A DNA stretch of 64,000 nt from IMG/VR virus record IMGVR_UViG_3300033752_000412, positions 1,502-65,501 of that record. One strand, given 5' to 3'. Shown one piece after another: positions 22,898-54,717 of the stretch. The translations under genes were made by a program, and so were the position numbers. The notes beneath the pieces were generated by a model that searched no databases, was not told where the DNA came from, and saw nothing but the letters and a program-made list of their open reading frames with translations. Within the stretch, counting starts at the first letter, position 1; every line of letters starts with the position of its first letter. The DNA comes from a virus (lineage: Duplodnaviria > Caudoviricetes).

Positions 22898-23231
22898 GTT
22901 GATCGGCCCGCTGACCGCCGAGGAGTGGTGCTCGCTACGGCTGGGCACCGACGACGACCCATTCCAGTGCTGCGCCGAGACGAGCGCCCTGCGGGACGCC
23001 GCGTTCCATGCGCTGCGGATGGGTGGCGAGGAGTATCACGGCACCGCGTTCTATATCGCCTGGCTGCGGGTAACCGAGTCCCACCCAGACCACAGGTTGG
23101 CAGAGCATCCGATCGTCGGCAAGCTGTACCAGTACTACGTCGAGGGCAAGGAGCCGCTGGCGGAGGCTACGGTCATCATGCGCACGGTCCGGTCGCTCCC
23201 GGCCCCTTCGGCCCCAGCCGGGGAGGGCTGA
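22890..23231 (+). CDS. Hypothetical protein
   Basis: Coupled ORF. Confidence 0.55.
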   Translation: MAELIGPLTAEEWCSLRLGTDDDPFQCCAETSALRDAAFHALRMGGEEYHGTAFYIAWLRVTESHPDHRLAEHPIVGKLYQYYVEGKEPLAEATVIMRTVRSLPAPSAPAGEG

Positions 23232-23234
23232 GCG

Positions 23235-23474
23235 GTGCCGAAGCGTGGCCTGAACACCCGGCTGGGTGGCCACCCCCGGACCGTCCGGGAACGGGGCATC
23301 GTGGCGAACCCGCAGGGATCGCGGGAGGAACGTCGGGCAGCTGCCCGGCTGGCCCGCAAGGCGTCGCCGCGGCCGGTGTGCCTGTCCCTGCCGGCCGAAC
23401 CCGGCCCGGCGCATGGTCCGGTAGGTGCGGATGCTCAGCGTGGCTCTCAGGGCGTCGGAGGAGGCGGACGCTGA
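23235..23474 (+). CDS. Small basic hypothetical protein
   Basis: TGATG-coupled to the AcrVA2-like gene. Confidence 0.4.
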   Translation: MPKRGLNTRLGGHPRTVRERGIVANPQGSREERRAAARLARKASPRPVCLSLPAEPGPAHGPVGADAQRGSQGVGGGGR

Positions 23475-24532
23475 TGGGGAAGGCAAGCCGGATCAAGGCC
23501 CGCGACAGGAGGACCGGCCGGCACATCAAGGTCGTCGACGCCGCCCAGGTGATCGCGATGGCCGAGCAGTGGGACAACCCGCAACTCCTGCGCAGCCCGA
23601 TCCAGGGAGAACGGTGGATAGCCGGCGTCGCCCACTTCGTGCTTGAGGAGTGGCGCAAGACCCGGGTGGTGCTGCGCGCCGACCTGGAGTTCGTGGGCGC
23701 CCTCCTGAACTCGGACACCAACGTCGAACTGGTCCCGGACTGGCTCGACCGGTCCCCCTTCAACTCGGTCGCGTTCTCCTTCCCAGAGCCGATCTCGCTC
23801 CACGACGGCGACAGGCTGTGCCACTACCACGGGTTCATCGCGGCCGGCATACGCAGCGGATCCCCCGAAAAGGGGGCCGGCGATATGCAGCGGGTTTACA
23901 CCCGCTACGGCCCGCTTCCCTGGGGGGATGGGGTCCGCTTCCTGTGGGTGTTCAACGTCGACGGTGACCCCACAACCCACTGCCAGACCGTCAGCATGTT
24001 CGTCCGCGGCGAGCACGCCAAACCTGACATTCGGACGCTCGCAGACCTGATCAAGGAGCGGGAGGCCGGCAGTCAGGCGTTCGGGTTCCAGTGGGGTAAG
24101 GACGAACTTGCTGCCCTCGTCCCCATTTCGGTGCAGCTGATGCTGTATCTCACCGCCACCGAACCCGACCTGGACTGGCTACCGCCGGAGCAGATCCGCC
24201 GCCCACACCAACTGCAGGCCGCCCGGGTCGGCAACGTGGGCTGGCGCGTGGGTTCCGCGATGCGCACGTGGCGGCGCGGGCAGCCGGCGGCCCCTACCGG
24301 ACGGCGGCTGAGCGGCTGGCGGCTGCCGCCCCACATCCGCCGCGCCCACTGGCACCGGGTGCGGGTGGCCACCCGCGCTGCGGACGGCACCGTGGTCGGC
24401 AGCCGAACCGGTGTGCAGGGTGTCGACTGGAACTACGAGATGCGCTGGTATCCGCCGACGCCGGTCAACGTGAGCGACGACGTTCCACCGGACCCGACCG
24501 TCCGCGAGGTCATCTCGGACGGTGCCCGGTGA
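23474..24532 (+). CDS. acrVA2: AcrVA2/FinQ-family protein
   Basis: Ordered matches to recalled AcrVA2 blocks: WRKT....D, L.R.P, LLYL.ATEPD, VG.RVGS..R, PPHIRRAHWH, MRWYPP..VN. This is a family-level call; the target is unknown. Confidence 0.75.
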   Translation: MGKASRIKARDRRTGRHIKVVDAAQVIAMAEQWDNPQLLRSPIQGERWIAGVAHFVLEEWRKTRVVLRADLEFVGALLNSDTNVELVPDWLDRSPFNSVAFSFPEPISLHDGDRLCHYHGFIAAGIRSGSPEKGAGDMQRVYTRYGPLPWGDGVRFLWVFNVDGDPTTHCQTVSMFVRGEHAKPDIRTLADLIKEREAGSQAFGFQWGKDELAALVPISVQLMLYLTATEPDLDWLPPEQIRRPHQLQAARVGNVGWRVGSAMRTWRRGQPAAPTGRRLSGWRLPPHIRRAHWHRVRVATRAADGTVVGSRTGVQGVDWNYEMRWYPPTPVNVSDDVPPDPTVREVISDGAR

Positions 24533-27179: not shown

Positions 27180-27219
27180 GGCGCCCCCGCGCGAGGGAAA
27201 TCCCTCGCGCGGGGGCGCC
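27180..27219. terminator. Bidirectional hairpin between the convergent arms
   Basis: GGCGCCCCCGCGCGAGGGA-AA-TCCCTCGCGCGGGGGCGCC, 19-bp perfect inverted repeat. Confidence 0.8.
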
Positions 27220-27257
27220 GGTTAGATCGGCCTATCGAAGGGGTGGAACGGGACCCG

Positions 27258-27461
27258 TTGACGTCCTCCCCGGCGTGAACGCCGGGGATTCCTCCTGCGC
27301 GGCTCATGCCGCGCTCCGGTGGGTTCCTGCTTCACCGGCGTCCGCCACCCCGAAGGGTGGTCTTACGTCGCCTCCACAGGCGTTTAGCCTGTCCGCCCGT
27401 CCGGCGGCCAGGATGGCCTAACCCCGCCCTGAAGGACGGGGCTTGCGGCCAAGATTTCGGG
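27258..27461 (-). mobile_element. 204-bp non-autonomous IS200/IS605 element (LE + tnpB 3' tail/omega-RNA-like scaffold + RE), copy 1
   Basis: Minus strand: follows TGAC. LE hairpin GCCCCGTCCTTCAGGGCGGGG, tnpB-tail ILAAGRADRLNACGGDVRP, RE hairpin TCCCCGGCGTTCACGCCGGGGA, ends TCAA. Confidence 0.88.
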
Positions 27462-27462
27462 G

Positions 27463-27819
27463 TCAGGGTTCGCCGCCGGGCTTCGGCGGCACCGGGGCGG
27501 TCACCTGGGTCCTGTTGAAGGCCCCGGCGACCATGGTCACGAACGCCATCACCACGGCCTGCTGGTCCGCGGTCCAGTCGAGACCGTAGCCCACGGCGAG
27601 GGACAGGAGCGCCTGGGCCAGGCCGAGCACGGCGGCGACGATGCCGTCGTGGGCGATGATGGCGACGGCGAGGCCCATGGCGGCGGCGAGGACCGCGTTG
27701 CACCAGGACTGCTGCTCCGGGGTGAAGCCGGCCCAGAACGCGCCGACGAGTTTGAGCGCTGCCGCGGCGACGGCCAGCCACACGGCCGGTTCGCGGCCGA
27801 AGATCCGTACCTTGCTCAC
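27463..27819 (-). CDS. Holin
   Basis: IFGREPAVW N-terminus, several TM segments, downstream of the lysin, AAGGAGG RBS. Confidence 0.75.
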   Translation of the reverse strand: MSKVRIFGREPAVWLAVAAAALKLVGAFWAGFTPEQQSWCNAVLAAAMGLAVAIIAHDGIVAAVLGLAQALLSLAVGYGLDWTADQQAVVMAFVTMVAGAFNRTQVTAPVPPKPGGEP

Positions 27820-27858
27820 GTCGCCCTCCTTGGGCTGAGGTTCTGCTCCCCAGGACTG

Positions 27859-28100
27859 TTGACTTCCTCCCCCGCCTAAAGGCGGGGGATTCCCGCCCTC
27901 ACGGGCTGGGCTTCCTGCTTCACAGCCGACCGCACCCGGGAGGACCCGGGATGTCTTACGTCAGCTCCACAGGCCGACACCGCTCGACCAGCGGCCAGGA
28001 TGTTCTTGGCGGCGTTGATGTCCCGGTCGTGCCGGGTGCCGCAACCCGGGCACGTCCAGTGCCGGGTGGAAAGGCTCAGCTCGGCGTTCAGCCCGCGCTC
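27859..28100 (-). pseudogene. tnpB: IS605 tnpB C-terminal remnant with right end
   Basis: [35 protein letters not shown] (Zn ribbon/RuvC-III), omega-RNA-like tail, RE hairpin TCCCCCGCCTTTAGGCGGGGGAGG, terminal TCAA. Confidence 0.9.
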
Positions 28101-28119
28101 CGGGTGGAAAGGCAGCAGC

Positions 28120-28323
28120 TTGACGTCCTCCCCGGCGTGAACGCCGGGGATTCCTCCTGCGCGGCTCATGCCGCGCTCCGGTGGGTTCCTGCTTCACCGG
28201 CGTCCGCCACCCCGAAGGGTGGTCTTACGTCGCCTCCACAGGCGTTTAGCCTGTCCGCCCGTCCGGCGGCCAGGATGGCCTAACCCCGCCCTGAAGGACG
28301 GGGCTTGCGGCCAAGATTTCGGG
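28120..28323 (-). mobile_element. 204-bp non-autonomous IS200/IS605 element, copy 2
   Basis: Identical by eye to 27258-27461. Follows TGAC (28324-28327), ends TCAA. Confidence 0.88.
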
Positions 28324-28467
28324 GTCACCGTCGGCGCGATCGTCGAAGACGCCGTGGTGGTGGAGGCGCCGCCCACCGTCCGGGACTGGGTCGGGCAGGA
28401 CGCCCACGCGCTGTGGCGGCTGCAGAAGCGCCGCGCCGACCTGGTCGAGTGGATTCCGGACCGCTGA
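28324..28467 (+). pseudogene. 3' remnant of a small phage gene interrupted by copy 2
   Basis: Removing 28120-28323 gives a continuous frame SGWKGSS|VTVGAIVEDAVVVEAPPTVRDWVGQD...WIPDR*. No start codon is left. Confidence 0.5.
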
Positions 28468-28482: not shown

Positions 28483-28665
28483 TCAGCCCACGCGGCCCAG
28501 CACGGCCCCGACCATGCCGCCGCCGGCCATTGCCACCCCGGAGGCCCACCACAGGGCCTGCTCCAGCCGTCGAATGCGTGCCTCGTGGTCGCTGGCCCGG
28601 GTCAGGTGCATGTCCAACTTGGTTTCCAGCCGGGCCAGCCGCTCGACGATGTCGTTGTCATCCAT
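28483..28665 (-). CDS. Small lysis-cassette membrane protein (coiled coil + TM)
   Basis: RLARLETKLD..DHEARIRRLE followed by a TM segment. Lies between lysin and holin. Confidence 0.75.
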   Translation of the reverse strand: MDDNDIVERLARLETKLDMHLTRASDHEARIRRLEQALWWASGVAMAGGGMVGAVLGRVG

Positions 28666-28668
28666 GCG

Positions 28669-29505
28669 TCAGGTGACTGGGTTGTGGTAGGCGGCGTACC
28701 AGGTCTTGGGGCCGAGCAAGCCGTCAACCTTGAGATGCTGGTCGCGCTGGAACGCTTCGATCAGCTCCCGGTACTCCGGCCCGTACTTGCCGTCGTTGCC
28801 ACAGCGGTGCAGGTACCGCTTGCCCTTGCCGACCGGCCAGCCGCGCCGGGCCAGCTGGGTCGCCCACATGCGTAGCCAGTCCCGGTCGAGCTTGCCCTTG
28901 AACCGGCGGCCGTAGTAGCCGCTGACGCTGTGGTTGCCGCCTTCCCGCGGGCCGAAGTAGTAGCCGGCCGGCAGCGGGAACGGCACAGGCGGGCCAGGTG
29001 CCGGCCGGGCGGCCGGGTTCGGCGCCGGCTTCGGCTTCGGCGCACCCTTCAGGTCGTCCAGATGCCAGTTGGTGCCCGTGACCGTGTCCGCTGCCTGGCT
29101 GAAGTCCGAGTTGACGTGCACGTGCTTGTCGTGCGGGTTCGACCCGGTGTAGACGCGGGTCTTGAAGCCGTCCCGCTTGTGCCAGATGCGTCCCTTGTAG
29201 ATGATGTACCGCACCCACCACAGGACGCCGCGGCGGGCCAGGGTCACCCACAGCTGGACGACCTGCTCCATCGTGACCCCAGCGGGGTCGCGCAGGTCGG
29301 CGTCGAAGTCCCGGGCGCGCACCTCGTCCTTGCTGTCGCCGTCCCGGTACTCGGGGTTTCCGGTGCGGTCCGGGTTGTGGCTCGACACGCCGGCCTGGTG
29401 CCGGGTGTCGCCGATCGACCCGTCGCTGGTCTTGTCACGGTTCGGGAACCGCGCGTTGAGCTGGTCGCGTGCCTCGTCCAGGCACGGCACCACTACCCAC
29501 CCCAT
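28669..29505 (-). CDS. Endolysin: M15-like Zn peptidase + peptidoglycan-binding domain
   Basis: SDG.IGD..H...SSHNPD..ARDFD..YII..GRIW..H.KHVHV. C-terminal DG.YGP..FQR...L.VDG..GP.TW. Confidence 0.9.
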   Translation of the reverse strand: MGWVVVPCLDEARDQLNARFPNRDKTSDGSIGDTRHQAGVSSHNPDRTGNPEYRDGDSKDEVRARDFDADLRDPAGVTMEQVVQLWVTLARRGVLWWVRYIIYKGRIWHKRDGFKTRVYTGSNPHDKHVHVNSDFSQAADTVTGTNWHLDDLKGAPKPKPAPNPAARPAPGPPVPFPLPAGYYFGPREGGNHSVSGYYGRRFKGKLDRDWLRMWATQLARRGWPVGKGKRYLHRCGNDGKYGPEYRELIEAFQRDQHLKVDGLLGPKTWYAAYHNPVT

Positions 29506-30680: not shown

Positions 30681-30828
30681 TTGACTTCCTCCCCCGCCTA
30701 AAGGAGAAGGTCATGAGCGCTTCGCGCTTTGGGCTGTCCCGGCTTCGCCGGGCCACCCCTTCCGGGGTCCGGATTCCTCCCCGGCCTGAAGGCCGGGGCC
30801 TCCTCCGGAGGTCTTGGTGAGGACTGGT
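30681..30828 (-). mobile_element. 148-bp IS200/IS605-derived palindromic mini-element (PATE-like)
   Basis: Follows TGAC (30829-30832). LE hairpin CCCCGGCCTTCAGGCCGGGG. Terminal 24 bp identical to the tnpB-remnant RE, but the RE hairpin left arm is lost. Ends TCAA. Confidence 0.8.
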
Positions 30829-30829
30829 G

Positions 30830-31597
30830 TCAGGGGACGGGATCGACCGTGTACCACGACTGGCTGCTGAACGTGGTGTATTGGCCGCCCTGCGCCTCGG
30901 CCACGACCACCAGCGTCTTCGGCCCGGTCTGTGTGGCCAGGTACTCGCGGATGAGCAGCGCGGTCTGGGAACTGGTGGTGACGGCTTCGAACTCGGTTAT
31001 CGCGCCGCGTACAACGGCGCCGCTGATGTTGTCCTCGCGGACATGTAGCCGTATGAGGGTTCCGATGGTGGAGGCGGAGCCGTTGGGCATGGCCGTCACC
31101 CGGTACCGCTTTCCGGCTTTCTGGTTGAACGCCAGCGTCGCGATCACCTGGGCAGTGGTGATGTTCGGAACTGACGCCCCCGCCGTTTCGAGTGCGCGGG
31201 GAAGCATCTGCTGCGTGAGTGCGTCCAGGTTCGCCTCGGCCGTTGCGAGCCGGGTGAACAGGTCTGTGGTGGACGGGGGTATCCGGTAGTAGACGGTGCT
31301 GTCGGTGGTCAGCCACAGGTCGGCGGTGTAGTTGTCCGGCCCGTAGAACGCCGGCACCCGGCCCAGGTCCCCCAACTCGGTCGACGTGCTGACCGTGCTG
31401 ATCGGCGACCCGGACTCGTCCAGCAGGTCGGTGACCTGGTTGCCGTCGACCGAGTCGTACACGTTGAACACCACCGCGCCCTCGGGGATCAGCGCGGTGC
31501 GGCCGGTCGCCTCCGGGATCACGTCGGGGATCTGAACCGAGCTGCCCAGGGCGACCGCGAAGTCGGCCGGGGTTCCCCCGTACAGCAGCCTCGCCAC
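30830..31597 (-). CDS. Minor tail protein (anchor + coiled coil + head)
   Basis: GGTPADF..VTDLLD..G.P...GRVPAFYGPD anchor domain, in tail-tip context. Confidence 0.75.
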   Translation of the reverse strand: MARLLYGGTPADFAVALGSSVQIPDVIPEATGRTALIPEGAVVFNVYDSVDGNQVTDLLDESGSPISTVSTSTELGDLGRVPAFYGPDNYTADLWLTTDSTVYYRIPPSTTDLFTRLATAEANLDALTQQMLPRALETAGASVPNITTAQVIATLAFNQKAGKRYRVTAMPNGSASTIGTLIRLHVREDNISGAVVRGAITEFEAVTTSSQTALLIREYLATQTGPKTLVVVAEAQGGQYTTFSSQSWYTVDPVP

Positions 31598-54559: not shown

Positions 54560-54717
54560 CAGCCGGTCACCGCCGCCTCGTCGCCGGCCGCCGCCTCGAT
54601 GCGGGTGGTGGAGTCGTAGAAGTACTTCAACGTGGGTGGGCTCCAATTTCGGGGATGGTTGGGGATGTGTGAGGAGCCGACCGGCGCGCATCCCCACCGC
54701 GCCGGCCGACCCCCGTC

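Follow-up and report, generated by a model that had tools for sequence, protein, structure and literature searches.

The lysis region of an actinophage provirus contains two identical stretches of 204 nt that encode no protein but retain the ends of a transposable element, which raises the question of what they are, how they came to be there and whether the phage itself gains anything from them. The window analysed here comprises 64,000 nt (positions 1,502 to 65,501 of IMG/VR record IMGVR_UViG_3300033752_000412; Duplodnaviria, Caudoviricetes) and is part of a 65.5-kb provirus with a G+C content of approximately 70%. A first-pass annotation of the window had interpreted the two copies as possible phage-borne guide cassettes. 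The analysis presented here indicates that they are, with high probability, PATE-type (palindrome-associated transposable element; MITE-like) non-autonomous derivatives of IS200/IS605 insertion sequences (IS), of the IS605/IS608 kind with divergent tnpA and tnpB genes. Every IS605 omega-RNA is inherently directed at the empty site of its own element; this is known biology and not a phage adaptation.

Both copies of the mini-element are on the minus strand, copy 1 at 27258-27461 and copy 2 at 28120-28323. Comparison of window 27258-27465 with 28120-28327 reveals 100% identity over 208 nt, that is, the 204-nt element together with a shared TGAC, which bears out the first-pass description of two identical copies. 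The minus-strand order at each copy is TGAC, 20 nt, a left-end (LE) hairpin, the pentanucleotide CATCC, a part derived from the 3' region of tnpB, a right-end (RE) hairpin and 9 nt ending in TCAA. In copy 1, the LE hairpin is at 27441-27422, CATCC, which marks a deletion junction, is at 27415-27411, the tnpB-derived omega-RNA-like scaffold and RE occupy 27415-27258, the RE hairpin is at 27288-27267 and the terminal TCAA is at 27261-27258. The TGAC, which is the target and putative target-adjacent motif (TAM), is at 27462-27465 for copy 1, where TGA terminates the reading frame of the holin gene (27463-27819), and at 28324-28327 for copy 2, again on the minus strand. The predicted 16-nt guides are the right flanks, at 27242-27257 for copy 1 and 28104-28119 for copy 2, the latter forming the 5' edge of a truncated tnpB remnant. 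Each is unique in the window, and both agree with the guides named in the first-pass annotation, which are true minus-strand right flanks. A short motif, TTCCACCC, is common to the right flanks of the two window copies (minus strand 27233-27257 and 28095-28119), at offsets of +10 and +11 from the end of RE. It is absent from the right flank of a third copy, described below, and was for this reason treated as a possible coincidence.

The ends of the mini-element are subterminal imperfect hairpins, without terminal inverted repeats, and LE and RE are not inverted copies of each other. When folded as single-stranded DNA, the LE hairpin has 8 bp and a TTCA loop and is situated 20 nt from the left junction (z = -1.7); the RE hairpin, with 9 bp, a TTCA loop and 9 nt to the end of the element, is the stronger of the two (z = -3.1). 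The same spacing is found in IS608 of Helicobacter pylori and ISDra2 of Deinococcus radiodurans, with about 20 nt between the left cleavage site and the LE hairpin and 9 nt between the RE hairpin and the TCAA end. In these elements too, insertion occurs 3' of a target motif without duplication, and the omega-RNA consists of the tnpB 3' end plus RE, with the right flank as guide. The RE pair GAAT/TCAA of the mini-element is presumably the same as that of IS608. In IS608, the tetranucleotide on the 5' side of the hairpin reportedly recognizes the cleavage site by base pairing, its bases 2, 1 and 4 with cleavage-site bases 1, 2 and 4, respectively. Applied to the mini-element, in which this LE tetranucleotide is CAAG, the pairing would predict TGAC as the target, compared with TTAC for IS608 and TTGAT for ISDra2. 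Unlike IS608 and ISDra2, the mini-element contains no genes, and outside these short motifs its sequence is unrelated to theirs. Its coding capacity is limited to C-terminal tnpB codons, without a start codon or N-terminal domains. The tnpB frame that is kept runs for about 35 codons to a stop (...ILAAG...EAGT...stop), or about 21 if the stop position of the relative in contig L075 is used. The composition given in the first-pass annotation (LE hairpin, tnpB 3' end, scaffold, RE and TCAA) is upheld, except that its count of about 19 codons is too low.

The parentage of the mini-element can be traced at both ends. A 30-nt LE probe identified four phage contigs (L075-L078) in which an IS is situated between a gene for an HNH endonuclease and the terminase, portal and protease genes. 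This IS is a complete IS605 of 1735 nt with divergent tnpA (138 aa; Y1_Tnp, E = 3e-43) and tnpB (402 aa; HTH, OrfB_IS605 and Cas12f1-like TNB domains). Its LE is identical to that of the mini-element at 51 of 51 positions, and its tnpB 3' end plus RE are 79% identical. The right 158 nt of the mini-element are closer to a tnpB remnant in viral contig L013 (95% identity) and are 81% identical to sequence in L025. Homologues of mini-element positions 51-208 are present in 38 of 301 Micromonosporaceae genomes, at 67-81% identity, but LE is never found there. No locus named here was taken from five genomes flagged as unpublished (G213, G106, G066, G138 and G217). The LE and RE match blocks overlap at CATCC (mini-element positions 51-55), a sequence that occurs both just inside LE and in the tnpB codons for N-I-L. 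This overlap indicates that the mini-element arose from a tnpA-tnpB element by one deletion at a microhomology: the loss of the sequence between the two CATCC pentamers removed tnpA, and tnpB as far as its structured 3' RNA region, leaving LE, a full omega-RNA-type scaffold and RE.

Other IS605-derived fragments were observed in related genomes. Solitary remnants of the tnpB 3' end and RE are located in intergenic gaps of actinophages, in sense orientation (L075 8520-8554 and L013 1700-1906), and the L013 remnant follows a TGAC that holds the stop codon of the upstream gene; such remnants seem to be common in actinophages of this kind. In addition, the 35-nt RE hairpin and TCAA tail are present as exact matches in L015, L016 and L017 (Actinoallomurus, Microbispora and Lentzea). 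As the sequence upstream is quite different, the RE module appears to be common to otherwise diverged elements.

A direct record of insertion is provided by a sister prophage, found with an exact RE probe on a 36-kb contig of a Micromonosporaceae metagenome-assembled genome, DASVCA010000130 (contig C130 of genome G001). This contig is collinear with window 28463-64000 at 95-96% identity and contains a third copy of the mini-element, identical at 206 of 206 positions. The site of this insertion is empty in the window, at 54653-54672 on the minus strand, where TCAC (54672-54669) precedes a 16-nt sequence that constitutes the right flank, and would-be guide, of the G001 copy. The window reads ...GGCTCC-TCAC-ACATCC... 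and the filled site ...GGCTCC-ACAC-(204 nt ending in TCAA)-ACATCC.... The two differ by exactly 204 nt, without target duplication, which independently verifies the element boundaries given in the first-pass annotation. This is precise insertion 3' of a tetranucleotide, the signature of the IS200/IS605 family. An attempt to reach the empty site of the G001 copy through a flanking conserved gene in other Micromonosporaceae had been unproductive, since the intergenic region is not conserved. All copies end in TCAA, and the left junction is TGAC at four of five independent sites (the two in the window, that in L075-L078 and one in L079).

Three identical copies are thus found at three unrelated sites, with unrelated flanks and exact boundaries, in two prophages that differ by 4-5%. 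This indicates that transposition took place after the two phages had diverged, and the recent mobility that the first-pass annotation had deduced from the two window copies is now supported by three sites, one of them with its empty allele.

The region to the right of the junction was compared as RNA in an alignment of 25 tnpB 3' ends, consisting of mini-element positions 51-208 and 24 relatives, all of which end at GTCAA. The consensus structure comprises 36 pairs in 8 helices, and compensatory changes are present in 23 of the pairs. The proportion of paired cells is 94.6%, compared with 35-47% when the partners are slid, and none of 500 shuffles reached the observed values. All 8 helices of the family structure are present in the mini-element, for which a minimum free energy of -117 kcal/mol over 204 nt is predicted. 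In full-length relatives, no further covarying helix emerged when the comparison was extended 90 nt to the left of the junction; the deletion thus spared the structured region in its entirety and almost nothing besides. The 8 positions at which the mini-element and the L013 remnant differ are all in unpaired columns, which, with 72 of 158 columns paired, would be expected by chance with a probability of about 0.008. This pattern appears to reflect selection in the family, and not necessarily in the mini-element. No match to the mini-element at gathering score was obtained in Rfam 15. The sub-threshold matches are HgcC (RF00062; E = 8e-4, 26.8 versus 50 bits) and sot0042 (RF02656; 16 versus 88 bits), which we take to be RNAs associated with tnpB 3' ends. 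Both have a 3' hairpin and GGAGGA-GTCA tail that align with the RE hairpin of the mini-element, although its scores are far below the gathering thresholds and it is a member of neither family. Judged from the covariation, the retained part is a complete omega-RNA-like (TnpB guide-RNA) scaffold.

From this anatomy, a pathway of movement and retention can be proposed. As the mini-element encodes no protein, mobilization would require a Y1 TnpA in trans, supplied from elsewhere in the host or by a co-resident phage. The route would be single-strand 'peel-and-paste' transposition, with insertion 3' of TGAC (or, less strictly, T-G/C-A-C) and without target duplication. In high-G+C DNA, TGAC often holds a TGA stop codon, so that insertions would fall harmlessly just after genes and be read through by the upstream operon. 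With a compatible TnpB, also in trans, the read-through RNA could be processed into an omega-RNA with a guide of about 16 nt, the sequence following TCAA, and TnpB would then cut the 'empty' allele, which consists of TGAC plus the flank. The filled allele, in which TCAA replaces the TAM, would be spared, in line with the model of restorative homing of Meers et al. Such guide action would be the ordinary selfish retention, or homing, of IS605 elements, and any advantage to the phage would be a by-product.

The setting of the copies is compatible with read-through. The minus-strand order in this region is minor tail genes, endolysin, XhlA-like gene, copy 2, tnpB remnant, holin, copy 1 and a terminator-like hairpin, downstream of which is a convergent plus-strand gene. 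The holin (27463-27819; phrog_9752), the XhlA-like small membrane protein (28483-28665) and the endolysin, which has a PG_binding_1 domain (28669-29505), form a minus-strand lysis cassette that frames the insertions. The hairpin (27180-27219, minus strand) is a G+C-rich, perfect stem of 19 bp (18 by terminator scan) followed by a T-rich tail, and is likely to be the terminator of the late/lysis operon. It begins 38 nt past copy 1, which would place this copy inside the late transcript. The claim that the copies follow TGAC, in sense orientation to the late/lysis operon, is correct for both window copies and does not extend to the third, which follows TCAC/ACAC.

Several points weigh against this reading. 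One insertion used TCAC/ACAC, which implies that the target and TAM are not strict or not fully defined by TGAC. Both tnpA and a full tnpB are absent from the 65.5-kb provirus record. A TnpB whose omega-RNA closely matches the mini-element was not recovered either, the best full-length loci found being only 79-81% identical to it in this region. Possible trans factors are encoded in the G001 genome, which has an intact IS605 with tnpA and tnpB and at least one further full tnpB; the omega-RNA regions of these loci, however, are at most 81% identical to the mini-element, and the autonomous IS605 has a different LE. A sigma-70 scan, which is of little value in actinomycetes, detected no promoter-like site. 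Finally, as all copies are identical, they are uninformative on selection acting on the mini-element itself.

Two further IS605-derived pieces, not mentioned in the first-pass annotation, are situated nearby on the minus strand. The first, at 27859-28119, adjoins copy 2 and is a 5'-truncated tnpB remnant (PF07282; phrog_506) that keeps the zinc-ribbon/RuvC-III C-terminus, an omega-RNA-like region and an RE ending in TCAA. It derives from another member of the IS605 family and is about 68-70% identical to the mini-element; its 5' edge contains two copies of a 13-14-nt direct repeat (GCCTTTCCACCCGG). Both this remnant and that of L013 are preceded by TGAC; an origin of the 5'-truncated remnants by TnpA cleavage at an internal TGAC was considered and dropped, the parents being unavailable for comparison and the L013 breakpoint ambiguous. 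The second piece is a composite scrap of 149 nt (30681-30829), which is preceded by TGAC containing the stop codon of gene 30830-31597, and which ends with the 3' half of a remnant-type RE hairpin and TCAA. The scrap (window 30681-30833) also holds a 52-nt palindromic module that forms a hairpin with a TTCA loop. This module recurs at L077 758-809 (98% identity), approximately 300 nt from the full IS605 and in the opposite orientation, and at L080 272-319 in a Micromonosporaceae genome (84%), and may be a separate small repeat family.

The sister prophage differs from the window at several positions in and around the lysis region. At its edge, an IS tail (C130 1-140) is 99% identical to the window tnpB remnant 27859-28119, in the opposite orientation, and adjoins a different holin-like gene (C130 143-361, minus strand; region 1-361 = L137). 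The stop codon of this gene is formed by the terminal TCAA of the IS on the other strand, and the contig breaks inside the IS. The lysis module, from the XhlA-like gene to the holin, has thus undergone rearrangement around IS copies in the two prophages. The 135 nt that separate copy 2 from the XhlA-like gene (window 28328-28462) are not matched in the sister prophage. Their plus strand contains the C-terminal 47 codons of an open reading frame (ORF) without an N-terminal part and without a Pfam or PHROG match, and this may be a gene truncated by IS-associated rearrangement.

Further away, gene 30830-31597 (phrog_27064), beside the minor tail genes, has a C-terminal half that is unrelated between the prophages (window 30833-31227 versus C130 2624-3086), apparently a swapped distal module, possibly related to host recognition. 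At window 54610-54612, the sister prophage has an additional 1.3 kb (C130 24935-26272), which starts with a gene whose N-terminus includes ...KYFYDTEFLDDG...; the window keeps only the first 18 nt of this gene. The first ~100 nt of the gene match 206 of 301 Micromonosporaceae genomes at ~80-89% identity. A 535-aa ORF at 22925-24532, flagged earlier as AcrVA2/FinQ-like, has no Pfam family at E <= 0.001, and a link between it and the mini-elements was considered and found to have no basis.

The alternative that best survives is akin to that of the first-pass annotation, namely that the copies are phage-adaptive guide cassettes which, with a TnpB borrowed from the host or a co-resident element, cut relatives lacking the insertions and so bring about marker exclusion, homing or superinfection exclusion. 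We consider this unlikely. Given a compatible TnpB, the mechanism would follow from the known TnpB model (PMC10055086). Full IS605 copies with the same LE are present in other phages, and the genome containing the sister prophage encodes TnpBs; a cognate TnpB was not recovered. The sense orientation of the copies inside the late transcript would suit such cassettes. IS200/IS605 insertion is, however, strand-biased, and this orientation is equally expected from that bias. The deletion retained exactly the scaffold supported by covariation, but selfish restorative homing accounts for the retained omega-RNA with no need to invoke a benefit to the phage. A natural filled/empty pair exists in two prophages of 95-96% identity, and the window target matches the guide of the G001 copy at 16 of 16 positions after TCAC; the flanks of the G001 insertion (~97% identity), though, are as diverged as the background and give no sign of co-conversion. 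In addition, the guide of copy 2 would target only a degenerate IS remnant, an unlikely marker of a competitor.

The search for empty alleles in relatives, which the first-pass annotation had proposed, succeeded for the G001 copy, whose empty allele is the window itself, and yielded none for the two window copies in IMG/VR, metagenome contigs, 401 Micromonosporaceae genomes and four sequencing runs. Holin relatives in IMG/VR and the JGI metagenomes reach at most 81% identity, with downstream sequence that is not alignable, and provide no empty allele for copy 1. Endolysin relatives (~70% identity, 48 loci) are associated with different holin modules and likewise provide none. Exact scans of viral contigs for TAM plus guide gave 0 matches for the window guides, and a search of the 401 Micromonosporaceae genomes did not recover the right flank of copy 1. 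Logan DNA contigs from the four metagenome runs (phyllosphere and mixed culture) contain filled junctions only, and none joins across an element; contigs cannot show rare variants and are uninformative on excision. INPHARED contains no near match to the region.

In its boldest form, the guide-cassette proposal would have actinophage mini-transposons hijack the TnpB of the host or of another phage to cut siblings without the insertion during co-infection or superinfection, homing together with flanking lysis-module markers. This too we regard as improbable. If true, this would amount to an RNA-guided equivalent of the free-standing homing endonucleases known from T-even phages, with the window phage and the G001 prophage as a natural donor/recipient pair.

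A less probable alternative still, for which we see little room, is that the copies are inert debris: dead remnants spread by recombination or segmental duplication, the RNA of which is no longer used. Two clearly decayed IS pieces are indeed present within the same 3.6 kb, the region is mosaic between the two related prophages and no transposase is encoded in the record. Debris of this kind is difficult to reconcile with the 100% identity of three copies across 204 nt, against a background of 4-5% divergence between the prophages around them, or with their unrelated flanks and exact boundaries, and the clean empty site fits the IS200/IS605 rule. Taken together, these features argue for recent TnpA-type transposition over duplication or old debris. 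An exapted cis-acting RNA, acting independently of TnpB as a structured 3' untranslated region that stabilizes or terminates the holin/late mRNA, might be suspected from the position of copy 1 between the holin stop codon and the terminator and from its stable predicted fold, but is extremely improbable, as identical copies occupy unrelated positions (that in G001 precedes a different gene), a terminator of the usual type, without a mini-element, is found at the closest holin relative (81% identity), and the pattern of covariation characterizes the tnpB-linked family as a whole.

The preferred reading, a PATE-type IS605 derivative, has clear precedents. PATEs often encode omega-RNAs that need TnpB in trans, and PATE-like minimal elements are found in Geobacillus stearothermophilus (Meers et al., 2023; PMC10055086) and in Haloquadratum (Dyall-Smith, 2011; PMC3119063). 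Like the mini-element, PATEs have no ORF, LE and RE hairpins of a tnpA/tnpB IS, multiple identical copies and an omega-RNA region, and they depend on TnpA and TnpB in trans, as the mini-element probably does. In the haloarchaeal tailed virus HRTV-DL1, RNA-seq revealed strong expression of a virus-borne, 489-bp PATE during infection (PMC10544981). Like the mini-element, it is a gene-less IS200/IS605 derivative in a tailed virus, with near-identical copies in other replicons of the same host; it differs in its length and its archaeal host. The mini-element is unlike the known PATEs in its location in the late/lysis operon of a prophage of Micromonosporaceae, in a parent that can be traced through an identical LE in a phage-borne full IS605, and in the filled/empty pair of sister prophages. 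The type of element and the idea of TnpB acting in trans are thus already in the literature and will not surprise specialists; the present case is set apart by a parentage that can be traced, a defined target rule and a pair of prophages, one filled and one empty.

The mini-element shows how an IS605 can decay to the minimum that is still movable (LE and RE) and still defended (the omega-RNA), and that phages carry such minimal elements between actinomycete genomes. Two prophages of 95-96% identity, one with and one without the same 204-nt element at a defined site, constitute a natural test system. The TAM (TGAC/TCAC) and guide can be read from the sequence, which, with a family TnpB, would allow TnpB homing between phages to be tested with guide sources that contain no genes.

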